Below are positions 10,944 to 31,221 of a DNA stretch of 43,660 nt, piece after piece. Each line of letters opens with the position of its first letter. The stretch's first letter is position 1. This stretch comes from Candidatus Micrarchaeota archaeon (lineage in GTDB: Archaea; Micrarchaeota; Micrarchaeia; Micrarchaeales; CABMGC01), in NCBI GenBank assembly GCA_021848095.1, contig JAJZMZ010000024.1, positions 1 to 43,660 of the forward strand. Direction: 5' to 3'. The position numbers were made by a program, and so were the translations under genes. A model generated the notes under the pieces. The model did not search any database, was not told the DNA's origin, and worked only from the letters and a program-made list of their open reading frames with translations.

Positions 10944-12011
10944 TTGATAAGTGAAGCGTTTAATGGCTCAGTTAAATATCTTCAAATAATGAATGAAGAG
11001 GGAGAAATAGATCAGACAGTTATGCCACAGGACATAAGTGATTCTCAGATTTTAGAGATGTATAAAGGAATGATGCTTGCAAGAGCTGTCGATGCTAAAG
11101 TCCTTAGTCTTCAAAGACAAGGACGTGCAGTAACATATGCACCTTTACTAGGTGAGGAAGCGACACAGATAGGAACAGCAATGGCTATGAGAAAACAAGA
11201 TATCTTTGTTCCAGCTTTTAGACAACATGGAGTATTTATAGAAAGAGGAGTTCCAATGGACTCATTATTCTTATACTGGAGAGGTTTTGAGGAAGGAAAT
11301 GTTTTTCCAAAAGAGCTCAATGCATTTCCAATAATAGTTCCCGTTGCAACGCAGATGCCACATGCTACAGGAATTGCTTTTGCACAACGATATCTTAAAA
11401 AAGACTCGGCCGTTTTAGTTTATGTCGGAGATGGAGGAACTTCAGAAGGAGATTTTTATGAAGCAATTAACTTCGCAGGCGTTTGGAAAGTACCACTAAT
11501 AACAATAATAGAGAATAATCAATGGGCAATTTCACTACCTAGAAATGAACAAACAATGGCAAAAACATTAGCTCAAAAAGCTATAGCAGTAGGTATCGAT
11601 TCTATTCAAGTAGATGGAAATGATGTTTTAGCTGTTTATAAAGCAACTAAAGATGCAATAACAAACTCAAGTAAAGGCCCAATGATAATAGAGTGTGTAA
11701 CATACAGAATGGGTTTACACACTACATCTGATGACCCTACAAAGTACAGAACAGATATTGAGGTAGAAACATGGAAAAAGAAAGATCCTATTGAACGTGT
11801 TAAAAAGTATTTAGTTAAAAAAGGATTATGGAATGATGCAAGAGAACAACAAGAAACTGAAGCAATTTCTAAATTAGTTGATGAATCTGTAGAAAAAGCT
11901 GAAAGATTTAAACCAGATCCTAGAAGTATGTTTAGTACAGTTTACAGCTTTATGCCACAAACACTTCGTGAAGAGTTTGATGAAGCTGAGGCGAATAACT
12001 TTTGGCAGTAG
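10944..12011 (+). CDS. pdhA: 2-oxoacid (pyruvate/branched-chain) dehydrogenase E1 alpha subunit
   Basis: TPP motif GDGGTSEGDFYE...ENNQWAIS; YRMGLHTTSDDP loop; LQRQGR. Confidence 0.95.
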   Translation: MISEAFNGSVKYLQIMNEEGEIDQTVMPQDISDSQILEMYKGMMLARAVDAKVLSLQRQGRAVTYAPLLGEEATQIGTAMAMRKQDIFVPAFRQHGVFIERGVPMDSLFLYWRGFEEGNVFPKELNAFPIIVPVATQMPHATGIAFAQRYLKKDSAVLVYVGDGGTSEGDFYEAINFAGVWKVPLITIIENNQWAISLPRNEQTMAKTLAQKAIAVGIDSIQVDGNDVLAVYKATKDAITNSSKGPMIIECVTYRMGLHTTSDDPTKYRTDIEVETWKKKDPIERVKKYLVKKGLWNDAREQQETEAISKLVDESVEKAERFKPDPRSMFSTVYSFMPQTLREEFDEAEANNFWQ

Positions 12012-12019
12012 GTGTTTTT

Positions 12020-12985
12020 ATGCAAATGAATATGGTTTCTGCACTTAACAATGCATTAGATATAATATTGAAAGAAAATGACAAAGCGTTAATTTTAGGA
12101 GAAGACGTAGGAAAAGACGGTGGTGTTTTCAGAGTTACTGAAGGTTTATTAGAAAAGTATGGTGAAAATAGAGTAGTTGATACACCATTAGCTGAATCAG
12201 GAATTATTGGAACATCTATAGGGATGGCACTTTCAGGTTTACACCCTATATCAGAGATTCAGTTCGCAGGTTTTATGTTCTTAGGTTTTTCACAATTAAT
12301 AAATCACGCTTCTAGATATAGAACTAGAACACGATCTAATATGAGTTTACCAATGGTTGTAAGAACACCTGTAAGTGGAGGTGTCAGAACACTAGAACAT
12401 CACTCAGATAGTCCAGAAACGTACTACTCGCACATTGGTGGTTTAATAGTTGTGGAACCATCTACACCTTATGATGCAAAAGGTTTGCTTATAAAAGCGT
12501 CTAGAATGAATGATCCAGTTGTATTTTTAGAGCCAACAAAACTTTACCGTTTATTTAGAGAAGAAGTTCCTGAAGAACCATATGAAGTTACAATAGGAAA
12601 AGCAAAGGTAGTGAGAGAGGGCAGTAAATTAAGTATAGTTACATATGGAACTATGGTTCCGGTAGTTAAAAGTGTTGTTGAAAAGAAAAAGCTAGATGCT
12701 GAGATAATTGATTTGAGAACTATAAATCCAATAGATGAAAAAACTATTTTAGAAAGTGTTAGTAAAACAGGAAGAGTTGCCATTGTTCACGAAGCATCAT
12801 TAAGTTTTGGCGTAGGAGCGGAGATAGCAGCAAGAATTTCTGAAAAAGCGCTTTATAAATTAAATGCGCCTATTGTAAGAGTAGGTGGAAATAGTTTCCC
12901 ATATCCATATCCAGGATATGAAAACTTCTATGTTCCAAATGAAAAGAAGATATCTTATGCATTGGATAAACTGTTAAAGGGTTGA
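12020..12985 (+). CDS. pdhB: 2-oxoacid dehydrogenase E1 beta subunit
   Basis: GEDVGKDGGVFRVT, DTPLAESGI, EIQF, HHSDS. ATG at 12020 follows a GGTG RBS. Confidence 0.95.
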   Translation: MQMNMVSALNNALDIILKENDKALILGEDVGKDGGVFRVTEGLLEKYGENRVVDTPLAESGIIGTSIGMALSGLHPISEIQFAGFMFLGFSQLINHASRYRTRTRSNMSLPMVVRTPVSGGVRTLEHHSDSPETYYSHIGGLIVVEPSTPYDAKGLLIKASRMNDPVVFLEPTKLYRLFREEVPEEPYEVTIGKAKVVREGSKLSIVTYGTMVPVVKSVVEKKKLDAEIIDLRTINPIDEKTILESVSKTGRVAIVHEASLSFGVGAEIAARISEKALYKLNAPIVRVGGNSFPYPYPGYENFYVPNEKKISYALDKLLKG

Positions 12986-12988
12986 GTT

Positions 12989-14353
12989 ATGAAAGAGTTA
13001 AAATTTGTTGATGTTGGAGAAGGAATAACAGAGGGAAATATTAAAAAATGGTTGTTCAAAGACGGAGATTCGGTAAAAGAAGATACAACTATAGTACAGA
13101 TAGAAACTGACAAAGCAGTAGTAAATATACCTGCACCAGTATCTGGTAAGTTAAAGATAGTTGCAAAAGAAAATACAACACTTAAGACAGGAGATACAAT
13201 AGCATTTGTAGGAGATGATGTTTCTACAACAACACCTCAACAAACAACACAAGGACCATCAAGTAGTGTTATCAGTAAGGCAATACACGAACAAGAAAGT
13301 ATCAAGGAGTTTGGTTTTGCGCCGGATTCTGATGCTGCAATTAATGCTCCTTCAACTAGCACAGCACAGCCACAAAAAACTACGACACAACCGCAAACAA
13401 ACATAAATCAACAACAAACAAATACAATTCAACCACAAATGAATACAACAAAGCAACAACAAAAAACAGAGGTCATTGCAACACCAGGCGTAAGAAAACT
13501 TGCAAGAGACTTGAATATTGATATAAATACAGTAAAAGGAACAGGTCCTAATGGAAAGATACTTGAAAATGATGTTAGATCCGCTTCAATAAGTACAAAT
13601 AAGAAAACATCAATCCCTAAGTTTTCAGAAACATTAGAAAAGTCACACACAGAAGATATTGAAAGAGTTCCATTAACACAAACAAGAAAAGCAATAGCAA
13701 AGAATATGGAGTTATCATGGTCAATACCAAGAGCAGTGCATATGGATCACATAGATGTAACAAATCTTTACGATTTAGTAAAAAGGGAAAAGGAGAACAT
13801 GGCTAAAAGAAATGTAAAGCTTACTTTCTTACCATTTATAATTAAGGCAACAATAGAAGCAATTAAAGAGAATCCACGATTTAACTCTAGTTATGATCAT
13901 GAAAAACTTGAGATAATATTAAAAAAATATTACAATATAGGATTAGCAGCACAAGGTCCTGATGGATTAAAGGTTGTAGTTATAAAAAATTCTGAGAAGA
14001 AGAATATTTCAGATATTGCAAAAGAGATACAAATGTTGTCAGAGAAAGTTAAAAAAGCAGAGGTTTCATTAGAGGATATGTCAGACTCAACATTTACTAT
14101 AACCAATATAGGAAGTTTAGGAGGAGGAGATTTTTCAGTCCCAATGATAAATTATCCTGAAGTTGCAATATTAGGAATACATCTAATAAGAGATACACCT
14201 GTAGTCAAAGATGGTGAGATTCAAATAAGAAAAATACTTCCATTTTCACTTACATTTGATCACAGAGTAGTTGATGGAGCTGATGCAGTAGCTTTTGGTA
14301 ATGCACTGAAAAGATATCTAGAGGATCCTGATTTTCTAGAGTTAATTGCTTAG
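12989..14353 (+). CDS. pdhC: Dihydrolipoamide acyltransferase E2
   Basis: Single lipoyl domain (ETDKAVV), E3-binding domain (ATPGVRKLAR..GTGPNG), catalytic DHRVVDGA. Confidence 0.96.
   Translation: MKELKFVDVGEGITEGNIKKWLFKDGDSVKEDTTIVQIETDKAVVNIPAPVSGKLKIVAKENTTLKTGDTIAFVGDDVSTTTPQQTTQGPSSSVISKAIHEQESIKEFGFAPDSDAAINAPSTSTAQPQKTTTQPQTNINQQQTNTIQPQMNTTKQQQKTEVIATPGVRKLARDLNIDINTVKGTGPNGKILENDVRSASISTNKKTSIPKFSETLEKSHTEDIERVPLTQTRKAIAKNMELSWSIPRAVHMDHIDVTNLYDLVKREKENMAKRNVKLTFLPFIIKATIEAIKENPRFNSSYDHEKLEIILKKYYNIGLAAQGPDGLKVVVIKNSEKKNISDIAKEIQMLSEKVKKAEVSLEDMSDSTFTITNIGSLGGGDFSVPMINYPEVAILGIHLIRDTPVVKDGEIQIRKILPFSLTFDHRVVDGADAVAFGNALKRYLEDPDFLELIA
13367..13471 (+). repeat. Imperfect 21-bp (7-aa) tandem repeat x5 in the E2 linker
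   Basis: QPQKTTT / QPQTNIN / QQQTNTI / QPQMNTT / KQQQKTE. Confidence 0.6.
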
Positions 14354-14361
14354 TTGATTTT

Positions 14362-15741
14362 ATGGTAATGGGCTCTATACCTGAAAAAGTAAATCTTGCA
14401 ATAGTAGGTGGTGGTGTAGGAGGTTATGTCGCGGCTATACGCGCCGCTGAGCTAGGTCTTTCAGTAATTATAATAGAAAAGGACAAGATGGGTGGCCATT
14501 GCTTAAACTATGCGTGTATACCGTCTAAAACACTATTGCACATTGCTGATATATACCACAAAGCAAAGAACTCACAAAACTTCGGAATAGAAGCTGAGCC
14601 AAAAATAAATGCACAAAAAATATTAGAGTGGAGAATGGGCGTTTCTGAAAAGCTAGAAAAAGGTGTAGAATTTTTATGTAACTCTAATGGAATAGAGATA
14701 GTAAAAGGCGGAGCAACATTCATATCCTCTCAAAAGTTACAGATAACTAATGGAACTGAGATTGATTTTGATACCGCAATAATAGCAACCGGTTCTGTCC
14801 CAGTAGAGTTAAAGGGCTTTGAGTTTAATGACTACATACTTGACTATAAAAAAGCATTAATGCTTTCAACAATACCTAAAACATTAACAATAATAGGAGC
14901 AGGATATGTTGCAGTAGAGTTAGCTACACTTTATGCTAAGCTTGGTGTTTCTGTTTCTATACTTGCACGATCAACTATTCTATCACATTTTGATCCTGAA
15001 GCTGTTTCAATAATAGAAAAAAGCCTTGAAAAGTTAAATGTTAAAATTTACAAAAACTCAGTTCCTGAGTCACATACACAAACCTCAATTAAATTGAAGT
15101 CAGGAGAAGAAATACCGCACGAGTTAGTTGTTGTAGCAGTAGGATTAAAACCATACACTGATAATTTAGGTTTAGAAAATACTAAAGTAGTTGTAGATCA
15201 AAAAGGTTTCATAACTGTCGGACAATCGTTAAACACAGCAGATGAAAAGATATTAGCAATTGGAGATGTTATAGGGGAACCGATGCTTGCACATAAATCA
15301 ATGAGACAAGGGGTCATCGCGGCAGAGGTAGCTGCTGGAAAAAATGCCGGTTTCGACAATGTCGTAATACCAGCAGTTGTATTTTCAGACCCAGAAATTG
15401 GAATAGCAGGAGATGTTTCTGAAAAAACAGGAATTTACATTAAAAAGTTCCCATTAACTGCACTTGGAAGAGCAATAGCAATGAACAAAACAGATGGCTT
15501 TGTTAAGATTGCATATGATAAAAATAAAGTAGTGAAAGGTATTGAAATTGTATCGTCTGATGCAAATGCAATGGTTGCTGAAGCTGCGTTAGCCATAGAG
15601 ATGGGTGCAACATTAGAAGACATTGCAGATACAATACATCCTCATCCAACATATACTGAACAAATACAGGAAGTAGCAGAAGCAGGTTTAGGAAGACCAA
15701 TACATTTCTTTTATGGAAAAAATAATGAAAATGGTAAATAA
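14362..15741 (+). CDS. lpdA: Dihydrolipoamide dehydrogenase E3 (NADP-type fingerprint)
   Basis: FAD GGGVGG, redox disulfide GGHCLNYACIPSK, C-terminal HPHPTYTE; position in the E1/E2 operon. Confidence 0.95.
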   Translation: MVMGSIPEKVNLAIVGGGVGGYVAAIRAAELGLSVIIIEKDKMGGHCLNYACIPSKTLLHIADIYHKAKNSQNFGIEAEPKINAQKILEWRMGVSEKLEKGVEFLCNSNGIEIVKGGATFISSQKLQITNGTEIDFDTAIIATGSVPVELKGFEFNDYILDYKKALMLSTIPKTLTIIGAGYVAVELATLYAKLGVSVSILARSTILSHFDPEAVSIIEKSLEKLNVKIYKNSVPESHTQTSIKLKSGEEIPHELVVVAVGLKPYTDNLGLENTKVVVDQKGFITVGQSLNTADEKILAIGDVIGEPMLAHKSMRQGVIAAEVAAGKNAGFDNVVIPAVVFSDPEIGIAGDVSEKTGIYIKKFPLTALGRAIAMNKTDGFVKIAYDKNKVVKGIEIVSSDANAMVAEAALAIEMGATLEDIADTIHPHPTYTEQIQEVAEAGLGRPIHFFYGKNNENGK

Positions 15742-17186: not shown

Positions 17187-20100
17187 TCACGGTAAAGGTT
17201 GCGCATTTGTAGATATTGCAATTCTTTGATAAGTCATATCGCCTAATCCGTTTGAACCATAGCCAAATTCAGTTCCGATAGGCAATGTGAATGTGCCCGT
17301 ATTAGCAAAGGAAACATTAAACTCGCCACTAGGTCCATTTTCAAATGTAGAGTTATAAGTAATTAGATCATAAATACTGTATACTGAACCTCCATTAGTA
17401 ACACTAGCAATACCAGAATATAAGTACTTACCATCCGGAGATACTATCATTTCTCCAGGTCCGCCAGTAAAACAACCACCACCATTGGCACCTGAATCAT
17501 AGTTTATTTTAACTATTTTTTGAAGTTGTGTATTTATCGTTGCAATTGCGCAATTAGAAAATGGAGTTGAATAACCTACAAAAACAAATGTTCCGTTAGT
17601 TGTAGATGTCATAGCATCTCTTTTGTTGTTGTAAATGGTATCATAGAAATTAAAATGAGGAAGTGATATCGTACTGAAAGCATTTGTATTCTTATTGTAT
17701 ATTGCAACTTCTCCGTTTTCTGGACTTAACATGTAAACATATGGTGTATTATTAACTGGAACTACAGGAGGATTTGTTAAAATTGAGTTAGTTGATTGAG
17801 ATAATAATCCCGAATCAGTTACTGTCCAATAACTATAAGTTATAAACTCATTTGGACTAGGTGGCGAAGAACAACTAAAAGCTCCGGCATCTCCAGTGCC
17901 CGCGGCGGTTTGAGTATCACTATTCCCATTTGCATTGTATGTTGAAGCTATAGTATCATTTAATGGATAATTGAAAACTATTTGAGCTGCCGTTGCGCCC
18001 ATACCTCCAGGAGCAGGACCAGGAGCATCACTATAATCATCTTGAAGTTGAGTTTGATAAGATAATACAGTCATATCGTTATTTTTTTCAAGCATTCCAT
18101 TTATATAAACAGTAGAAGTTGATGCAAAACCATAATTTGCTTCAGCAGCACAAACAGAACCAGAAGATGAGGACATAGATGAAAAAGCATCTATTGTTTG
18201 ATAAGGGGTTAGATATAAGTTTCCTGCAGCGCAAGGACCTCCTGAAGGGCAGTTTGCAGCTTGAGAATTACTAGTTGTTGCAGCCATACCAGATAAAATA
18301 ACATTTGTTGGAAACACTTGGGATAAAGTTTGAGCATAAAACTCGTAATTTACACTTCCTGAAGGGTATATTGAGAAGAAATTTCCATTTGGTTGTGAAA
18401 AATCAGCCACCATTGGTAAATAATACGTACTTGTTTCAGGAGTCATTGGATAACCAGAGTTATAAAAGTATGAAATTTGCGCTTCTGGCGCTACAATATT
18501 TGAGTTAACAATATTTTGTGTAGTATTAGCAGTAGTCAATAACGCTTGTCCATCATTTATAGTATTGCCAGTGTAGTTATAACCTCCAATTCTTAAGTTA
18601 TTTCCATCATAAAGTAATGCAGTAGGAGAAAATGTAGATGGTAATGTAACATTTTCTTTGTTTATTAAGTATGCACTGCTTATAATACTAACCTGTCCAA
18701 AGTTTGTAGAACCTGGATTATAATAATTTCCTGATTTCTGAGCGCCTGTTGTGTATATATTGTAGTTATTTTGTGGTGCGTATACAATGTCTGCATTTCC
18801 ATAAGTTTTAGGAGTATTTAAGTTATTTTCTAGGCCCAGAACACCATCTTGAGAACCTGATTTAAGATTATAAATTTCATAAAAGTTTCCAGAACCTACC
18901 GTTGTGCTTACATATAAATCAGTACTATTTGCACTTGAAACAAAGTTATATTGTGAGCCCGTAGCTAATGGAATAGAATCGGGATAATTAACGTAGGGAT
19001 CAGTGGATCTGAAGTTCTGAACACTCTTTACACTGGAAACGCCACTTCCACTTACTGGAAATGTGTATACGGTTTCGTTTGATAGTACAACATAAAGATC
19101 AGTAAGATTACTACTTAATGTTGCACCAACAGTATAGTTACTTAAAGATAATGCTACGTTTGTGTAGTTTATCTTTAACGATGTTGTGTTAAATGATGCT
19201 ATTGACGAGTTGTATTCAGATGAAGATGTTCCATTGACCATTGCAAAGTACATAAAGTTTCCATCTGTTACCATATTTATTATTCCAGAAGCAGAACCTA
19301 TTGAAGGTCCGAATTTGTTTATTAATATATTTGCTGCCATTGAGTTATTTTTGGTGGTATTTAATACATATAAATTAGTTGAGTTTGAAATAAAAGCATA
19401 ATTACCTAACATTATGAAACTTGTGAAGTAAGGATTATATGCTGCATCTGAAGCCGATGATCCGATAATATTAGTTAAGTTTTTAACTTGTATTTTATTG
19501 TAAGTGTAGAATAAATTAGAGGATGTCATAGCATCTTGCAAATCAGTTTTATTGATTATTACTAAATATGGGCCTTCTGGTGTATTAAAAGCTGATGATG
19601 TCCCTCCTATTAAGATGTAAAGTGAACCTGATGAGTTAAACTGCATTGAATAGCCATCTCCAGAAGCTACTCCTTGAATTATAGTCGTATTTGCAGTTGA
19701 GTTTGCTATTAAAGCTTCCTTAACTACTGATTCAGTAGATGTATTTATTATTACTAGAGCAGCTGTGAAACTGCTATTTCCATCATTATAAAACTTAGAT
19801 AAGTCATAAACATAACCGTCTCTAGAAACTGTAATGTAATTGTGATTAGATTCATAGTATGAGCTACCTATACTGTTCAACACATTGTTGTGGTACATAT
19901 CGCTTACTAGCCCTATCGTTTGTCCACCGTTATTATTGCTGTAGAAATAAGTATCCTTTGATGGATAGGTATAAGCTGGAACTGGATAATAGAAACCTGT
20001 TTGTTTATTGAAGTTTGCCGTTTCCACCGTATTGTCACTCATAGTTAAGGTGTTTGTTGATGCTGTTCCTGCATAACATCCTATACCAGTACAAGTCCAA

Positions 20101-21266
20101 TCATTAAATTCATAACCAGAAGCAGGAGTTTCAGATATTATTACTGTGTTTCCAGCTTGATATGAACCACTTGGTGGAGAGGCAGTTCCCCCATTTGTTG
20201 GATTAACATTAGTTGTTAAGGTGTAAGTTGCAATTGATTGTTGGAAGTTTGCTGTTTCTACAATATCTGAGTTCATTGTTATTGTTGCTGATTTTGTAGT
20301 TCCAGAGTAACAACCCGTTCCTGTACAAGACCAACCCGTAAATATATAACCTGATGCAGGAGTTTCTGAGATTGTAACTTGTGTTCCAGAGTAATAACTT
20401 CCTGAAGCAGGAGTCACCGTTCCTCCATTTGATGGAACTGAGTTTGTTGTTAAAGTATAAGTTGCTAATTGGTTGAAGCTTGCCGTTTCTACTATATTAG
20501 CATCCATAATTATTGTCGGATTAGTAGATGTTCCTGAGTAACAACCCGTTCCAGTACAAGTCCAATCGTTAAATGAATAACCCGTACTTGGAGTTTCTGA
20601 GATTGATACTGATTTCCCACTGTTATAACTTCCTGAAGTTGGAGATGTCGTACCTCCATTTGTTGGAGAAGGATATGTATTTAATGTATAAGTAGGCAAC
20701 GTTGTTGTTGTACTTAATAAAGAATTATATTGATAAATATATGTCAAACCGCTTCCTGAAGTTGTTAATGAAACTTCTTGTTTACTATTACTATTACAAT
20801 TTTGAGAGATACATTCAGAGTATGTTAAGTAAAACTGTGGACTTATCTCAGAACCTATTGGAAGTGTAAGACCAGTTACTGAGATAGTACATGTAATACG
20901 TTCACCTTGAAGAGCTGTAGAAGGTTGACAACTACCTTGATAATACTGTGAGTTAGGAGTAAACTTAATTGAAAATGAAGAAGAGGAAAAATATAAGGGT
21001 TTATTGACATTATTTGAAAACTCAATTAATGCAGATGTTCCAATTGAGTTAGAGTTTATCAAAAGTTGATAACATGGAAACTCTGGAGAGATATAACAGT
21101 ATGACGATGCATATGTTGTTTGATTGCTCGAGTAGTAAAAGTAAATGACGAGTACTGCAATTAATATTATTATTGCCCATGAGTAACTAAGAACATATTC
21201 TATTGCGGATTGCTGTTTTGAAGTTTTTTTTGTAGTGCCGTGTAGTATTTTTTTAGAAGATGCCAT
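17187..21266 (-). CDS. Giant (1359 aa) surface protein: class III (pilin-like) leader, 3 InlB-B/Flg_new-like repeats, probable beta-propeller
   Basis: N-terminus KQQSAIEYVLSYSWAIIILIAVL; repeats TYTL...GGT..P.SGSY..G..V.ISETP..GY.F..W.CTG.GCY.GT; C-terminal VSRDG / VSPDGKYLY YncE-like blades. Confidence 0.8.
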   Translation of the reverse strand: MASSKKILHGTTKKTSKQQSAIEYVLSYSWAIIILIAVLVIYFYYSSNQTTYASSYCYISPEFPCYQLLINSNSIGTSALIEFSNNVNKPLYFSSSSFSIKFTPNSQYYQGSCQPSTALQGERITCTISVTGLTLPIGSEISPQFYLTYSECISQNCNSNSKQEVSLTTSGSGLTYIYQYNSLLSTTTTLPTYTLNTYPSPTNGGTTSPTSGSYNSGKSVSISETPSTGYSFNDWTCTGTGCYSGTSTNPTIIMDANIVETASFNQLATYTLTTNSVPSNGGTVTPASGSYYSGTQVTISETPASGYIFTGWSCTGTGCYSGTTKSATITMNSDIVETANFQQSIATYTLTTNVNPTNGGTASPPSGSYQAGNTVIISETPASGYEFNDWTCTGIGCYAGTASTNTLTMSDNTVETANFNKQTGFYYPVPAYTYPSKDTYFYSNNNGGQTIGLVSDMYHNNVLNSIGSSYYESNHNYITVSRDGYVYDLSKFYNDGNSSFTAALVIINTSTESVVKEALIANSTANTTIIQGVASGDGYSMQFNSSGSLYILIGGTSSAFNTPEGPYLVIINKTDLQDAMTSSNLFYTYNKIQVKNLTNIIGSSASDAAYNPYFTSFIMLGNYAFISNSTNLYVLNTTKNNSMAANILINKFGPSIGSASGIINMVTDGNFMYFAMVNGTSSSEYNSSIASFNTTSLKINYTNVALSLSNYTVGATLSSNLTDLYVVLSNETVYTFPVSGSGVSSVKSVQNFRSTDPYVNYPDSIPLATGSQYNFVSSANSTDLYVSTTVGSGNFYEIYNLKSGSQDGVLGLENNLNTPKTYGNADIVYAPQNNYNIYTTGAQKSGNYYNPGSTNFGQVSIISSAYLINKENVTLPSTFSPTALLYDGNNLRIGGYNYTGNTINDGQALLTTANTTQNIVNSNIVAPEAQISYFYNSGYPMTPETSTYYLPMVADFSQPNGNFFSIYPSGSVNYEFYAQTLSQVFPTNVILSGMAATTSNSQAANCPSGGPCAAGNLYLTPYQTIDAFSSMSSSSGSVCAAEANYGFASTSTVYINGMLEKNNDMTVLSYQTQLQDDYSDAPGPAPGGMGATAAQIVFNYPLNDTIASTYNANGNSDTQTAAGTGDAGAFSCSSPPSPNEFITYSYWTVTDSGLLSQSTNSILTNPPVVPVNNTPYVYMLSPENGEVAIYNKNTNAFSTISLPHFNFYDTIYNNKRDAMTSTTNGTFVFVGYSTPFSNCAIATINTQLQKIVKINYDSGANGGGCFTGGPGEMIVSPDGKYLYSGIASVTNGGSVYSIYDLITYNSTFENGPSGEFNVSFANTGTFTLPIGTEFGYGSNGLGDMTYQRIAISTNAQPLP
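20010..20693 (-). repeat. Three intragenic tandem repeats, period 231-234 bp
   Basis: Units start at 20693, 20462 and 20228; the similarity is visible at DNA level (e.g. gagtaacaacccgttcc, acaagtccaatc, ggagtttc). Confidence 0.9.
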
Positions 21267-24496: not shown

Positions 24497-25336
24497 CTAA
24501 ATTTTCTGATTTTCTAATAGTGACCTTAAAACTAACTTAAAATTACTTGATTCTTTCAATCTCCTATAAGAATAACTAATCCAATCTTCACCGAACGGAA
24601 GATATAAACTCATGTTATGTTTTTTTGCAATGTTTTTGGCCAGATTATTTCTTATGCCATAAAGCATTGCATACTTTGGTTCCTTATTGTATTTTTTAGA
24701 TAACTCAAACGATGATTTTATTATATTTAAATCGTGTGTTGCTAAAGTAAAGTTATCAGATTTTTCAAATAAATACTCCATTAAATGACTATAATTTTTT
24801 GTCGAGTCTTTCTTATCATAGGAAATTGATTTAGATTCAGTATAAGCACCTTTTACTAAACGTATAACTCCATTGTGTTTGAGTATTTTTATTAAATCAG
24901 AGTTTGTTCTTTTTAAATAAGATTGTAAACATATTCCAGTATTTCCTAATGAGTTGTATTTTAAATAAAGTGAAATGGTATTATTTACATAGATGTACTT
25001 TTCCATGTCTAACCAAACAAAAATATTATTTTTCTTTGCCGCCTTAATTATTTTTAAATAATTTTTATTTATAGTTTCTTTATTTACAAGAAGACCTAAC
25101 TGTGTTGGCTTAATGGCTATCGAAGAGTTAAGATTGTTTTGCTTTAATTTTTTAATTAACTGTAAATAAATATCAACAGATTGATTAGCGTCTTCTTTTT
25201 TGTAAGTATCTTCGCCTAGATAATTTATCATTGAGTTTATTCTTAACTTAGATAAATCAACAGCTGTAATTATAGCTTCATTTACTGTAGTACCTACAAT
25301 CCATCTACCAGCGAGTATCTTCTGTAAAATTGACAT
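24497..25336 (-). CDS. Monofunctional proline dehydrogenase
   Basis: IKPTQLG, LDME, QSYL, RLVKGAY, ATHD, MLYGIR, YLPFG..W..Y..RRL.E. Confidence 0.92.
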   Translation of the reverse strand: MSILQKILAGRWIVGTTVNEAIITAVDLSKLRINSMINYLGEDTYKKEDANQSVDIYLQLIKKLKQNNLNSSIAIKPTQLGLLVNKETINKNYLKIIKAAKKNNIFVWLDMEKYIYVNNTISLYLKYNSLGNTGICLQSYLKRTNSDLIKILKHNGVIRLVKGAYTESKSISYDKKDSTKNYSHLMEYLFEKSDNFTLATHDLNIIKSSFELSKKYNKEPKYAMLYGIRNNLAKNIAKKHNMSLYLPFGEDWISYSYRRLKESSNFKLVLRSLLENQKI

Positions 25337-26646: not shown

Positions 26647-26725
26647 GGTATCAACATTATGTTTATGTATATCAATAATACAGTTATGTTTTTAATATTT
26701 ATTGCTTATTGATAGAATAGATGTA

Positions 26726-28459
26726 ATGCGATTCTTAAAATATGATGTTATAATTTTAGGTAGTGGAATAGGTGGATTTACAACTGCAATACATGCTTCT
26801 AACTTTGATAAAAAAGCAAAGATAGCCGTAATATCTAAATTACATGCGATGAGAAGCCACTCTGTTTCTGCTGAAGGTGGAATATCAGGTGTTTTATATC
26901 CACAAATAAATAAAGATTCTGAGAAGTTACATGCTTACGATACAATAAAAGGCTCTGATTATTTATCAGATCAAGATGCTGTTGAGTTATTAGTTAAAAA
27001 TGCTCCAAAGGAAATTGTATTCTTTGAACACTTAGGAGTACCATGGAATAGAAATGAAAAAGGAATTATACAAGAAAGGCCTTTTGGAGGTATGAGTGTT
27101 CCTAGAACTGCTTTTGCAGCAGATAAGACAGGATTTTTCATGATGCGCTCACTTTATGATCAAGTACAATCACTACCCAATGTAGATATTTTTCATGAGC
27201 ACTTCGCAACTAGAATATTTAGAACTAAAGACGCAGTAGGAGTTTTTACAATAGACTTAGCTACAGGAAAACACAGCGTTGTTTATGGAAGCTCTTTAGT
27301 TATAGGAACAGGAGGTTTTTCTAGAATTTATAAAATAACTACTACAGCACACTCAACAACTGGTGATGGAATAGCCTTAGCATATAATGCTGGCGCATCG
27401 CTTAAAGATGTAGAGTTTGTACAGTTTCACCCTACTGCACTAGTACCTAATGGTATTTTAATAACAGAAGCGGCTAGGGGCGAAGGTGGCTATTTACTAA
27501 ATAAAGATAATGAACGTTTTATGAAGAGATATGCAAGTAGTAAGATGGAGCTAGCTCCTAGGGATATTATCTCACGAGCAATAATAACAGAGATAAATGA
27601 AGGTAGAGGTATGAAGGATAAAGATTCTGGATTAGAGTATGTTTATCTTGACTTGAGACATTTAGGAAAAGAAGTGATAAACAAAAGGCTACCGATGATT
27701 AAAGAAATATGCATTAAAACCATAGGACTAAATCCTGAAGAAGAACCTATACCAGTAAGACCAGCTGCTCACTTCACAATGGGAGGTTTAAATACAGACA
27801 TAAATGGAAGAGTTTTAGATATTGAGCTGAATCACGTAAGTAATTTGTGGGGCGTTGGAGAGTGTGGTTGCGTAAGTGTACATGGAGCAAACAGATTAGG
27901 AAGCAACTCATTAAGCCAATGCTCAGTTTGGGGCAGAATAGTTGGTAAAGAAGTTTCAAACAATACACATGAGATAAAAAATGAGGATGTTAAAGAACTC
28001 GAGGTTTTAGCTGAAGCTGAAGACTCTCGATTGAAAGAGATGTTAAGTAAAAAGGGCATGTACACTGTATATGAACTTCAAGATGAAATGAAGGATGTAA
28101 TGGAAAAGTACTTCTATGTTTACAGAAACGAGAAGGAAATGAAAAAAGGTGTAGCACTTCTTGAAAAAATTCTTAAAAAATCTGCAAACTTAAGAATAGA
28201 AGATAAAACACATATATTCAATACTAACTTAAGAGATACTTTAGAGTTTCTAAATCAAATAGAACTTGCTTACGCAGTAGGAGTTGCTGCATACAATAGA
28301 AAAGAAAGTAGAGGTGCACATAGTAGAACTGATCATCCAAAGCGTGACGATAAAGCTTGGTTAAAACATACAATTTTAGCAAAAGAAGGTAGCGGAATAA
28401 AGATAAGTTATAGCGATGTTAAGATAACAAAGTGGGAACCTGAAGAAAGAAAATATTAG
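26726..28459 (+). CDS. sdhA: Succinate dehydrogenase / fumarate reductase flavoprotein
   Basis: GSGIGG, covalent-FAD RSHSVSAEGG, QFHPT, EAARGEGG, HFTMGG, HGANRLGSNSL, ESRGAH. ATG at 26726 preferred over the TTG at 26702. Confidence 0.96.
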   Translation: MRFLKYDVIILGSGIGGFTTAIHASNFDKKAKIAVISKLHAMRSHSVSAEGGISGVLYPQINKDSEKLHAYDTIKGSDYLSDQDAVELLVKNAPKEIVFFEHLGVPWNRNEKGIIQERPFGGMSVPRTAFAADKTGFFMMRSLYDQVQSLPNVDIFHEHFATRIFRTKDAVGVFTIDLATGKHSVVYGSSLVIGTGGFSRIYKITTTAHSTTGDGIALAYNAGASLKDVEFVQFHPTALVPNGILITEAARGEGGYLLNKDNERFMKRYASSKMELAPRDIISRAIITEINEGRGMKDKDSGLEYVYLDLRHLGKEVINKRLPMIKEICIKTIGLNPEEEPIPVRPAAHFTMGGLNTDINGRVLDIELNHVSNLWGVGECGCVSVHGANRLGSNSLSQCSVWGRIVGKEVSNNTHEIKNEDVKELEVLAEAEDSRLKEMLSKKGMYTVYELQDEMKDVMEKYFYVYRNEKEMKKGVALLEKILKKSANLRIEDKTHIFNTNLRDTLEFLNQIELAYAVGVAAYNRKESRGAHSRTDHPKRDDKAWLKHTILAKEGSGIKISYSDVKITKWEPEERKY

Positions 28460-28466
28460 TGTTTTA

Positions 28467-28874
28467 ATGACAGGAGTTGAGTTTAGAGGAAAACAGTCGA
28501 GTATTTTTAGACTTAGATTTTTTGATAAATTTGCATTAATACATATGATATTTTATCGAATAATAGTAGTGCTAGGGATAATTACCGGAGTAAGTATCTT
28601 TGCATATGCACTTTTTGGAGTTAAAGAGTTACTTTTAATTTCAGAGTACTTGATAATGTGTATTTGGATATTATTTACTCCACAGTTATATGAAATTGTA
28701 CAGGTTTTAAATCTTAAGATAACCAATGCACATATTTCAAAGTATATGAATAACTCATTTTTAATTAGCAATAATTTAAAGAAAAAATACCTTTTCTTAA
28801 GAACAATAAATGTCCTTTCAGTAATTATATGGATTATTCTTTTAATAATTTATTTTAAAATGTTGATTTTATGA
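28467..28874 (+). CDS. 3-TM membrane protein; putative atypical Sdh/Frd anchor
   Basis: Three hydrophobic segments; sits between sdhA and sdhB, with an ATGA overlap to sdhB. Confidence 0.65.
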   Translation: MTGVEFRGKQSSIFRLRFFDKFALIHMIFYRIIVVLGIITGVSIFAYALFGVKELLLISEYLIMCIWILFTPQLYEIVQVLNLKITNAHISKYMNNSFLISNNLKKKYLFLRTINVLSVIIWIILLIIYFKMLIL

Positions 28875-29824
28875 GAACATCAAAGTACTTTGCATTTTTT
28901 TATCTGTCTATGGGATTTCTTCCTTTGCTTTTTTTCTTACTTTTAGTTTCTACAGTTTACAATTACATATACTACAAAGAGTTACTTGTTTTAACAGGAG
29001 TTGATTTAATTGTATTTTCAGTTTTAGGCCTTTTAGAGATATATAAAAGAACTGAAAAAATAAAAACGAACACATTAGTTAAAAATTATATCAATACTGT
29101 AAAAAGTAATGATTACTCAATAATAGTTGGCGGATTTGACACTAAATCGAAGGAGATAAAGCAAAAACAATACAAAGTAAATGTCAATAAATACACATCT
29201 GTTTTAGATGTCCTCTTGCAAGTTAAGAAAAAACAACAAAACTCCCTCGCTGTAAGATACAGTTGTAGAATGGGAATATGTGGTTCATGTGGAATGGTAA
29301 TAAATGGAAAACCCGCTTTAGCTTGTGAAACTAACTTTATGAAAGTATCGAAAGATAAAGTAGTTACAGCTGAACCAATGCAAGCACACCCAATAGTTAA
29401 AGATTTGGTTACAGAGTTTAAAGATTTCTTTGATAAACACAGTAGTGTTGAACCACATTTAATAAGAGAAAATGTAAAGGAACAGATGACTGGAAAAACA
29501 CCTTATGATCAAAAACCAAGTGAGACAAATAAGTTCCTCCCATATTCATACTGTATAATGTGTGGTTTGTGTAATGATGCATGTCCTGTTGCTAACTCGA
29601 ATCCAGAGTTCTTAGGGCCGCAGGCATTGTCTCAAGCTTACAGATATCAAATGGACTCGAGAGATCAAAGTGAGGGCAGATTAACAGCTATAGATAAATT
29701 AACTGGATTATGGGGCTGTGAGTTTGCAGGCGCATGTTCTAAAGCATGTCCAAAAGGAGTAGATCCTGCATCTGCAATACAGTTGCTAAAGTTATCAACT
29801 GTCGAAGATGATTTGAAAAAATAA
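28871..29824 (+). CDS. sdhB: Succinate dehydrogenase / fumarate reductase Fe-S subunit with N-terminal 2-TM extension
   Basis: CRMGICGSC..C (2Fe-2S), CIMCGLCNDACP (4Fe-4S), CEFAGACSKACP (3Fe-4S); the first ~60 aa are two TMs. Confidence 0.93.
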   Translation: MRTSKYFAFFYLSMGFLPLLFFLLLVSTVYNYIYYKELLVLTGVDLIVFSVLGLLEIYKRTEKIKTNTLVKNYINTVKSNDYSIIVGGFDTKSKEIKQKQYKVNVNKYTSVLDVLLQVKKKQQNSLAVRYSCRMGICGSCGMVINGKPALACETNFMKVSKDKVVTAEPMQAHPIVKDLVTEFKDFFDKHSSVEPHLIRENVKEQMTGKTPYDQKPSETNKFLPYSYCIMCGLCNDACPVANSNPEFLGPQALSQAYRYQMDSRDQSEGRLTAIDKLTGLWGCEFAGACSKACPKGVDPASAIQLLKLSTVEDDLKK

Positions 29825-29841: not shown

Positions 29842-31221
29842 ATGAAGCATAGATTAGAAAAGGATGCGATGGGAAGTATGGAGGTACCGTTTGATGCATA
29901 TTATGGTTCAGAGACATTTAGGACTATACAACACTTTAAAATATCAGGTCAAAAGGTAGATCTTGCATTAGTACACACATATGCAAAAGTTAAAAAAGCA
30001 ACTGCAACGGCAAATATGCGTGCAGGTAAATTAGATAAAGAAAAAGCAAATGCAATAATAAAAGCATGTGATGAAGTAATGTCAGGAAAGTTTGATGACC
30101 AATTTATTTTAGATCCTTTTCAAGCTGGAGCTGGAACAAGTTTAAACATGAATGTCAATGAAGTTGTAGCAAATATAGCAATAGAAAAATTAAATGGTAA
30201 AAGGGGTAATTACAAAATAGTTCATCCTAATGATCACGTAAATATGTCACAATCAACAAATGACACATATCCAACCACAGTAAATATAACATGTTACTCA
30301 CTTTTACATGAGTTATTATTACCAGTTTTGAAAAGTTTAGAAAAATCCTTTGACAAAAAAAGTATTGAGTTTTCAAAAATAATTAAGATTGGAAGAACAC
30401 ATTTACAAGATGCAGTGCCTATGAAGTTAGGAGAGGAGTTTGAAGCTTATTCAGGAGCTATTAAAAAATCAATAGAAAGTATTGAAAAATCTTCTTACTT
30501 TTTATTAGAAGTTCCCATAGGAGGAACAGCTGTTGGAACTGGATTAAATACAGGAAAGGAGTATCAAAAATTTGTTCTTGAAGAACTTAAAAAAGTAACT
30601 GGATTAAAATTAAGAAGAGCTAACTCCGTATTTACAGATATGTCTTTTAGACAAGATCAATTAGAACTTGCCAACTCACTTTTAACAACATCTGTTTTAT
30701 TAACAAAAATAGCCAATGACTTAAGATTACTTAGTTCTGGTCCTAGAACAGGAATTTCAGAGATAATACTACCTTCTGTACTCCCAGGTTCATCTATTAT
30801 GCCAGGAAAGATAAATCCAAGCATAGTTGAGATGTTGAATATGGTATGTTATAGGGTTATGGGTTCTGCAAGTACAGTTGCTGGAGCAGTTTCTGGAGCG
30901 CAGTTGGAGTTAAATGTATTCACTCCTGTAATTTCATATGAGTTAATAAACTCAATAAGAATACTTTCAAATGCAGTAAAGGCTTTTGATGTACAGTGTG
31001 TAAGAGGAATAAAAGCTAATACAAAAAATATTAATAAATATATAGAGATGGATCTTGAGGTAGTAACAGCATTAAATCAATACATAGGATACTCAAAGGC
31101 AGCACAGATAGCAAATATAGCATTAAAGGAAAATAAAAGCATACTACAGGTTTGTATTGAAAGAAAGATATTAGATAAAGAAACCTTAGAAAAAGTACTT
31201 AACCCTAAAAATGAGGTATGA
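29842..31221 (+). CDS. Aspartate ammonia-lyase / class II fumarase family
   Basis: GRTHLQDA, GSSIMPGKINP, HPNDHVN.SQSTND; QAGAGTSLNMN and QLELNV lean towards aspartase. Confidence 0.88.
   Translation: MKHRLEKDAMGSMEVPFDAYYGSETFRTIQHFKISGQKVDLALVHTYAKVKKATATANMRAGKLDKEKANAIIKACDEVMSGKFDDQFILDPFQAGAGTSLNMNVNEVVANIAIEKLNGKRGNYKIVHPNDHVNMSQSTNDTYPTTVNITCYSLLHELLLPVLKSLEKSFDKKSIEFSKIIKIGRTHLQDAVPMKLGEEFEAYSGAIKKSIESIEKSSYFLLEVPIGGTAVGTGLNTGKEYQKFVLEELKKVTGLKLRRANSVFTDMSFRQDQLELANSLLTTSVLLTKIANDLRLLSSGPRTGISEIILPSVLPGSSIMPGKINPSIVEMLNMVCYRVMGSASTVAGAVSGAQLELNVFTPVISYELINSIRILSNAVKAFDVQCVRGIKANTKNINKYIEMDLEVVTALNQYIGYSKAAQIANIALKENKSILQVCIERKILDKETLEKVLNPKNEV

Follow-up and report, generated by a model that had tools for sequence, protein, structure and literature searches.

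How is a complex II held in the membrane when none of the recognised anchor genes accompanies its catalytic subunits? The question is raised by an sdh operon in a 43,660-nt stretch of forward-strand DNA (the window) from a Candidatus Micrarchaeota archaeon (assembly GCA_021848095.1, contig JAJZMZ010000024.1, positions 1 to 43,660), in which the genes for the flavoprotein SdhA and the iron-sulfur subunit SdhB flank a gene for a 135-aa protein with three transmembrane (TM)-like segments, and SdhB itself begins with two more. Complex II enzymes are sorted by their membrane anchors, and six classes (A to F) are recognised (PMC10238741, PMC13332983); in the accessible parts of these papers, the six classes include neither an anchor of 3+2 helices nor an anchor part fused to SdhB. 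A preliminary description of the window had proposed that the two membrane parts form a new, probably heme-free anchor of 3+2 helices. The analysis reported here favours, with a probability of roughly 0.72, a respiratory complex II (succinate:quinone oxidoreductase or quinol:fumarate reductase) with a two-part, five-helix anchor, of which a two-helix hairpin is fused to SdhB, and which probably holds no heme. The source genome (0.81 Mb, the window being its contig 7) is 91% complete, and gene absences reported from it are therefore provisional.

The catalytic core can be recognised without difficulty. The gene sdhA (or frdA; 26702-28459, + strand) specifies 585 aa as listed from TTG 26702, although ATG 26726 (codon 9, MRFLKYDV...) is the likelier start since the proteins of relatives begin there; the Pfam FAD domain runs from aa 15. 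SdhA carries the features by which the flavoproteins of the complex II superfamily are known, i.e. FAD_binding_2 (PF00890, 1.2e-100), Succ_DH_flav_C (PF02910, 2.7e-39), TIGR01812 (707.6 bits, above the cut-off of 567.3) and a histidine, H52 (in MRSHSVSAEGG), aligned with the equivalent residue of Escherichia coli FrdA and SdhA, which we take to be the carrier of covalent FAD; its score against NF004724 (812.6 bits) is just below the cut-off of 826. The features of the iron-sulfur subunits are equally present in SdhB: Fer2_3 (PF13085, 1.4e-27) and Fer4_8 (PF13183), TIGR00384 (220.1 bits, cut-off 88) and 11 cysteines in three cluster motifs (132, 137, 140, 152, 228, 231, 234, 238, 283, 289 and 293) that align with those of FrdB and SdhB. 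It also passes NF004616 (238.9 bits, cut-off 228).

The unusual part of SdhB is its N-terminus. The gene (28871-29824, + strand, 317 aa) begins with a region encoding the two-helix hairpin (28871-29056, aa 1-62), followed by a Lys/Arg-rich linker (29057-29116, aa 63-82) and the SdhB/FrdB iron-sulfur domain with the stop codon (29117-29824, aa 83-317). The frame is closed upstream of ATG 28871 by a TAA at 28856, five codons before. Within the frame, ATG, GTG or TTG occurs at codons 1, 14 and 19 and then only at codon 116, past the beginning of the 2Fe-2S domain (its Pfam match begins at about aa 93, profile position 13), so that no standard start codon is available for a soluble SdhB. The start ATG overlaps the TGA (28872-28874) of the preceding three-helix gene in an ATGA at 28871-28874, which favours the long start. 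Hydropathy placed TM-like stretches at aa 6-34 and 36-58, and the first histidine of the protein is aa 173. The order sdhA, three-helix gene, sdhB in the list of open reading frames, the two histidine-free TM segments, the lack of a start codon in the linker and the ATGA overlap are thus as the preliminary description had them. An AlphaFold2 model gave helices at aa 5-30 and 35-66, with a predicted local distance difference test (pLDDT) score of 83-89 across aa 11-50. No Pfam or NCBIfam family matched aa 1-80. Among 25 aligned hairpins, fused and separate, M1 and Y11 are invariant and P18, L41 and G53 occur in 90% or more; E56, which lies where helix 2 reaches the cytoplasm, is shared by at least 90% of 16 micrarchaeal rows and is replaced by His or Tyr in the crenarchaeal ones. 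The linker is poorly conserved and of variable length (alignment columns ∼70-112), and its pLDDT is low at aa 63-67.

The three-helix protein is encoded at 28467-28874 (+ strand), 5′ of and overlapping sdhB; the gene is unannotated and SdhC-like by its position. Hydropathy showed three TM-like stretches, and the only histidines are H26 and H89, two as the preliminary description had counted. The AlphaFold2 model (mean pLDDT 86.9) has a basic N-terminal segment with a short helix at aa 13-19, followed by helices at aa 21-50, 53-85 and 105-134. The same description had called this subunit an orphan, and that did not hold: a profile search of 1.84 billion representatives yielded 68 representative clusters, all of at most 148 aa except for one spurious match of 4270 aa. 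By these matches the family is small and, among the 68 representatives, never fused to anything; in the parsed loci its gene always lies between sdhA and the hairpin. Seventeen micrarchaeal orthologues align over their full length, with R31, W67 and W122 invariant and R7, G8, R15, H26 and L69 kept in at least 90%; H26 is replaced by Gln in one genome of the window's genus (G004), and H89 shows no conservation. When crenarchaeal relatives are included (17 rows), H26, W67 and W122 are invariant, and R31 is Arg or Lys. Where the source names them, members are called 'hypothetical protein'. The protein and 17 family members matched no Pfam or NCBIfam family, the family profile had no match among Protein Data Bank (PDB) sequences at E <= 10, and the nearest ESM Atlas clusters were unnamed, at 0.86-0.87, below the 0.9 taken as a lead.

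The preliminary description had suggested modelling a multimer of SdhA, SdhB and the three-helix protein. Prediction of the complex of SdhB with the three-helix protein scored 0.80, the best of three controls scoring 0.00; the 0.80 mark is reached by 116/157 solved complexes and by 2/215 mismatched pairs, counts that hold only roughly here since custom alignments were used. Runs agreed in at least 98% of contacts, and the pLDDT of the partner was at least 86. Residues 14-57 of the hairpin contact all three helices of the partner, and partner residues 1-31 and 87-104 contact SdhB at 145-148, 171-177, 216-245 and 284-308, the last two stretches holding the cysteines of the [4Fe-4S] and [3Fe-4S] clusters (C228-C238 and C283-C293). 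The SdhB side of this interface may reflect the model's memory of solved complex II structures; the partner, as said, has no sequence match among them. The prediction supports binding of the three-helix protein to the SdhB hairpin and to the [3Fe-4S] end.

The distribution of charge is compatible with this arrangement. Lys and Arg together number 2 ahead of the first hairpin helix, 1 between the two and 6 beyond the second, and 5, 1, 4 and 1 in the successive segments of the three-helix protein, which fits a hairpin with both ends inside and a three-helix protein with its N-terminus inside. With such a topology the hairpin ends, the N-terminal segment of the three-helix protein and the loop between its helices 2 and 3 would all lie in the cytoplasm. 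The canonical three-helix SdhD or FrdD ends on the outer side of the membrane. This would explain what could be fused: a hairpin can be joined to the cytoplasmic Fe-S domain because both its ends face the cytoplasm, while a canonical SdhD or FrdD cannot be joined in this way because it ends on the far side.

The proposed anchor would then be a five-helix bundle made of the 135-aa protein and the hairpin at the SdhB N-terminus, with the basic linker of ∼20 aa tying the hairpin to the cytoplasmic Fe-S domain, and with the three-helix N-terminal segment and helix 2-3 loop seated beneath the [3Fe-4S] end of SdhB. From FAD, electrons would travel by way of the three clusters to a quinone site to which SdhB, the three-helix protein (H26 and R31) and the hairpin (Y11 and E56) all contribute. 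These four conserved polar residues, at the cytoplasmic face of the membrane, most likely mark the putative quinone site.

This proposal and the first alternative to it differ over heme. The membrane domain of the window's enzyme has no histidine other than H26 and H89, and the hairpins have no conserved one. In SdhC and SdhD the ligands of heme b are located in the second helix of each subunit; both helix 2 of the three-helix protein and the hairpin of the window are free of histidine. In addition, no HemB, cytochrome b, cytochrome bd subunit I or COX1 was found in the source genome. The anchor is probably heme-free since a conserved pair of histidines, HemB and the common cytochromes are all missing, and a bis-His heme b in the window's enzyme is, by the same sequence comparisons, unlikely.

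Some observations count against a heme-free anchor assembled as proposed. H26 is nearly invariant from Micrarchaeota to Crenarchaeota, and many of the separate hairpins described below end in EVFxHG, so that the unfused forms may hold a heme between H26 and the histidine of that motif. G004, which has a fused-type operon and belongs to the window's genus, encodes a heme-copper oxidase on the contig that carries its sdh operon, and this is an argument against a heme-less lifestyle for the whole group. As for the structural models, the Fe-S domain was poorly predicted when SdhB was modelled alone (mean pLDDT 58.2, only the hairpin being confident), and the program used for the complex is able to pack hydrophobic helices against one another, its score covering the partner only.

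The first two of these observations are also what an alternative can draw upon in which the anchor is a diverged SdhC/SdhD of type A or C, its SdhD having lost the third helix, and heme b is bound by H26 and a ligand from the hairpin or a neighbouring protomer. The best profile comparison points the same way, if faintly: when E. coli FrdC, FrdD, SdhC and SdhD were compared as single-row sequences with hhalign, the best was SdhC, with a probability of just 9.5% (FrdC and FrdD, at most 0.3%). Heme ligands sit in the middle of the membrane, however, and H26 is at the cytoplasmic start of helix 1, where contact with SdhB is predicted; it is, moreover, the residue replaced by Gln in G004. The EVFxHG histidine is missing from the window, whose hairpin has none at all, and from most rows of the fused clade. 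Reversed-sequence controls in hhalign scored similarly (up to 1.3%), none of the 17 family members (0/17) matched PF01127, PF02300 or PF02313 even at E <= 10, and the lack of HemB in the genome is a further obstacle. The alternative is therefore considered unlikely. The preliminary description had also raised the chance that canonical sdhC and sdhD lie elsewhere, and the 91%-complete genome gave no sign of them: PF01127, PF02300, PF02313 and PF02754 had no match at E <= 1.

The five-helix, probably heme-free anchor can be set against the known classes. The closest is type D, E. coli FrdABCD (PDB 1KF6, 1L0V). Among solved structures SdhB is closest to E. coli FrdB (1kf6_B, 165.5 bits; mitochondrial SdhB, 138.4; E. 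coli SdhB, 120.4); it lacks the Trp that follows the first CP motif and the His of the CxxxxxC motif, both present in E. coli SdhB, and is FrdB-like at the two positions, while SdhA is equally close to FrdA (420.5 bits). As in type D, the anchor has two parts and no conserved pair of histidines, and so is probably heme-free. It differs in that FrdC and FrdD are separate proteins of three helices each, while here the helices number 3+2 and the smaller part is fused to SdhB; in gene order, which is A, B, C, D in type D and A, anchor, anchor-B here; and in sequence, neither the FrdC and FrdD families (PF02300, PF02313) nor the hhalign comparison showing any kinship. Given the FrdB-like SdhB and the lack of a conserved histidine pair, the enzyme is proposed to work as a type D-like, heme-free complex II; by analogy, the anchor probably works like E. 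coli FrdCD without belonging to its families.

Type C, E. coli SdhCDAB (PDB 1NEK), also has a three-helix subunit of ∼130 aa with a basic N-terminal segment under SdhB. The three-helix protein has an R31, invariant in the 17 orthologues, near the start of helix 1; E. coli SdhC presumably has an R31 as well, at its quinone site, which may be a coincidence. Foldseek with the AlphaFold2 model put E. coli SdhC in the top rows at E values of 1.9-4.3, and SdhC and SdhD chains appeared with both Foldseek and VIA-align, none significantly; any resemblance of fold is weak. Unlike type C, there is no pair of heme-ligand histidines, the partner has two helices instead of three, PF01127 is not matched, and the Trp and His of E. 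coli SdhB are missing. Type B, represented by the Wolinella succinogenes fumarate reductase and the Bacillus subtilis succinate dehydrogenase, shares a total of five TM helices. The type B anchor is a single five-helix polypeptide that binds two hemes through four histidine ligands; here there are two polypeptides and no conserved pair or quartet of histidines, and the FrdB of W. succinogenes is a weaker match to SdhB (98 bits) than that of E. coli. Type E is defined by SdhE/SdhF with the CCG domain (PF02754), and no CCG protein was found in the operon or in the genome at E <= 1. Type F is represented by Sdh1 of Mycobacterium smegmatis, which has a multi-helix anchor with a membrane-embedded Rieske Fe-S cluster (PMC10238741); its SdhB (7d6v_B) is a weak match (95 bits), and no cluster-type Cys motif was seen by eye in the membrane parts of the window's enzyme, neither a count nor an alignment against the Sdh1 anchor having been made.

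Other genomes of the window's genus and order have a different complex II, observed in two loci, L018 (G018:C32) and L020 (G030:C7), and in four genomes of the genus (G005, G006, G008 and G009). Its SdhB is 27-32% identical to that of the window and is followed by genes for a multi-helix membrane protein of 238-240 aa and a membrane protein of 56 aa, neither with a Pfam family. The two proteins are a possible further anchor type that annotation has missed in these archaea.

The five helices might, as a second alternative, be a mere membrane tether for a soluble-type SdhAB whose electron partner is something other than a quinone. No recognised quinone-site motif was found, and SdhB has no equivalents of W164 and H207 of E. 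coli SdhB, which we take to be quinone-site residues. The source genome has no terminal quinol oxidase that could be found, and of its four UbiA-family prenyltransferases only one is MenA-like, weakly so (72.9 bits against a cut-off of 277). Some Micrarchaeota are reported to lack quinone synthesis, according to the accessible part of one study (PMC5498576). This alternative was judged improbable on several counts. The conserved polar residues of the membrane parts are placed exactly at the membrane face beside the [3Fe-4S] end. At the W164 and H207 positions the protein resembles FrdB, and FrdB works with menaquinol. The genome has three Nuo L/M/N-type antiporter subunits and the window a proline dehydrogenase, both of them quinone-linked. 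Finally, a mere tether would have no need of a second, conserved three-helix protein.

The long SdhB is not the product of an assembly error. The region 28300-29400 is covered by contigs from three further samples of one study and partly by a run of a second study, with no letter inserted or missing; one contig, from run X4, spans 28845-29400, i.e. from the hairpin into the Fe-S domain. Four substitutions (28892, 29097, 29106 and 29152), translated by hand, change or keep an amino acid and create no stop codon. An error that had removed a stop, for which the preliminary description wished reads to be checked, was thus not seen in these contigs. The survey of relatives that it also proposed was performed on 200 genomes sampled from the same order, in 72 of which this type of SdhB (a match at E <= 1e-40) was found. 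The protein is fused in 58 of the 72, the match beginning at or before query residue 25 in a single open frame without stops, and unfused in 14, the match beginning at residue 71-90. Lengths of 315-347 aa are shared by 119 of the 120 top-scoring proteins in the database, and in 112 of the 120 the match extends over 94% or more of the query. These results show a real fusion that is maintained by selection.

In each of the runs X3 and X4 the 227 bases of 28300-28526 (the 3′-end of sdhA and the 5′-end of the three-helix gene) are represented twice, by a contig that differs at 1 position and by another that has 22 substitutions. Two strains coexist in these samples.

The unfused relatives show what the hairpin was before. 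In all 14 unfused genomes (loci L013-L017 and L037-L045) a separate hairpin gene of 62-71 aa lies between the three-helix gene and an sdhB of 248-255 aa, and in the unfused micrarchaeal loci it and sdhB share a few bases. Of the 14, G037 (L017) has not been published, and no conclusion rests on it alone. The loci of Sulfolobales and Desulfurococcales have the same order: sdhA, a three-helix gene (133-135 aa), a hairpin gene (∼70 aa) and sdhB (∼251 aa). The separate hairpin gene was recorded in 8/9 crenarchaeal loci, the ninth (L052) having been missed by the parsing script. In the crenarchaeal class the three-helix family was found in 11/151 sampled genomes, and five parsed loci are the unfused operon. 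Whether the hairpin is fused or has a gene of its own, the three-helix gene overlaps it by the same 4 nt in most parsed loci, the exceptions being L004 and L005 (1 nt), L012 (a 4-nt gap) and L028-L030. The hairpin is thus a genuine subunit, since it has a gene of its own where it is not fused. The preliminary description had taken a separate TM gene in relatives as a reason to give up the fusion; such a gene does exist in the deeper relatives and in Crenarchaeota, and the reading of the window's SdhB as a fusion is strengthened by it. That the long protein is an artefact, a lost stop codon, frameshift or chimeric assembly having joined a small membrane gene to sdhB, is hardly credible: a single-base error could indeed join the overlapping genes of the deeper relatives, but 58 genomes of many assemblies and >100 protein clusters have the fused frame open, the linker of the fused forms (20-40 aa) has no counterpart in the split ones, the contigs of other samples show no indel and one of them bridges hairpin and Fe-S domain, and the fused rows form one clade.

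That clade was obtained in a tree of the SdhB core, built from the Fe-S domain only (hairpin and linker columns omitted) with 35 rows: 18 fused, 14 unfused micrarchaeal and 3 crenarchaeal, which served as root; the other 40 fused genomes were left out. The 18 fused rows grouped together with a support of 98 in the Shimodaira-Hasegawa-like approximate likelihood ratio test (SH-aLRT), and a single change accounts for the trait; one fusion is thus enough. The fused genomes of a second family (f3; nine, all of genus g45) nest within the fused clade of the window's family, and the one unfused genome of the latter (G016) groups with an unfused genome of that second family. The tree suggests that the operon may have moved between micrarchaeal families.

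The evidence on the direction in which the enzyme works points both ways. Among 40 relatives (which are kin, and so not independent, and 58-97% complete), cytochrome bd subunit I was found in 0/12 of the fused type, 2/5 of the unfused 3+2 type and 9/23 of the others, a distribution that might point to a chain with fumarate as its last acceptor. The only relatives in which COX1 was detected were G004 and G007. The idea of an obligate fumarate reductase in an oxidase-free chain was tried and set aside, given that the G004 oxidase shares a contig with the fused sdh operon.

The COX1 match of G007, the window's closest relative (G007:C66:332-1633), contains seven in-frame TGA codons. It is possibly a pseudogene, a contaminant contig or DNA of an organism that reads TGA as a sense codon.

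The surroundings of the operon are ordinary archaeal housekeeping and energy metabolism. A class II fumarate hydratase gene (fumC, 29842-31221, + strand; Pfam Lyase_1, 4.1e-93, and FumaraseC_C) follows sdhB after 17 nt, as it follows sdhB in the loci L002, L005, L007-L009 and L016 of relatives. Pfam further identified a 2-oxoacid dehydrogenase operon, proline dehydrogenase, SecDF, ribonucleotide reductase and subunits of an A-type ATP synthase. The 2-oxoacid dehydrogenase operon, near the sdh operon, is complete (E1 alpha, E1 beta, E2 and E3; 10944-15738, + strand), and the proline dehydrogenase gene is also close by (24500-25336, - strand); both enzymes are suppliers of reducing power in a genome in which no terminal oxidase was found. 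An open reading frame of 1359 aa (17190-21266, - strand) has as its sole Pfam match three divergent InlB B-repeat (Flg_new_2) stretches and is probably a large surface protein.

The enzyme is therefore a known one with what seems to be an undescribed anchor architecture. The initial proposal of a new, probably heme-free 3+2 anchor has gained a conserved fusion, a conserved three-helix family and the lack of any canonical anchor in the genome; that the anchor is heme-free and that it is new are still things that we infer. The full-text literature covered contains no description of a 3+2 anchor; the survey of Karavaeva and Sousa (2023) and the supplements of Chen et al. (2018), which could bear on novelty, fell outside that coverage. 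In the accessible parts of two papers on Micrarchaeota, the SdhA phylogeny and the presence of complex II are treated and the anchor is not (PMC5864196, PMC5498576). A bolder formulation can be given even odds: the anchor would be a seventh, heme-free class, unrelated in sequence to A-F and present in Micrarchaeota and in a minority of the genomes of the crenarchaeal class; its hairpin would have been fused once to SdhB, making this the first complex II in which a hydrophilic subunit is covalently joined to the anchor, and the fused operon would have been passed between micrarchaeal families.

If confirmed, the architecture would add a class to complex II and provide a natural example of how anchor modules attach to the soluble SdhAB core. 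There is at present a gap in annotation, the three-helix gene being a 'hypothetical protein' and SdhB being named without mention of its membrane part. With the anchor genes unannotated, metabolic reconstructions of Micrarchaeota and of some Crenarchaeota see SdhA and SdhB and no anchor; a seventh class, if true, would account for the apparent lack of anchor subunits in these archaea. The finding also bears on how ultra-small, host-dependent archaea that seemingly make no heme run a membrane electron chain.

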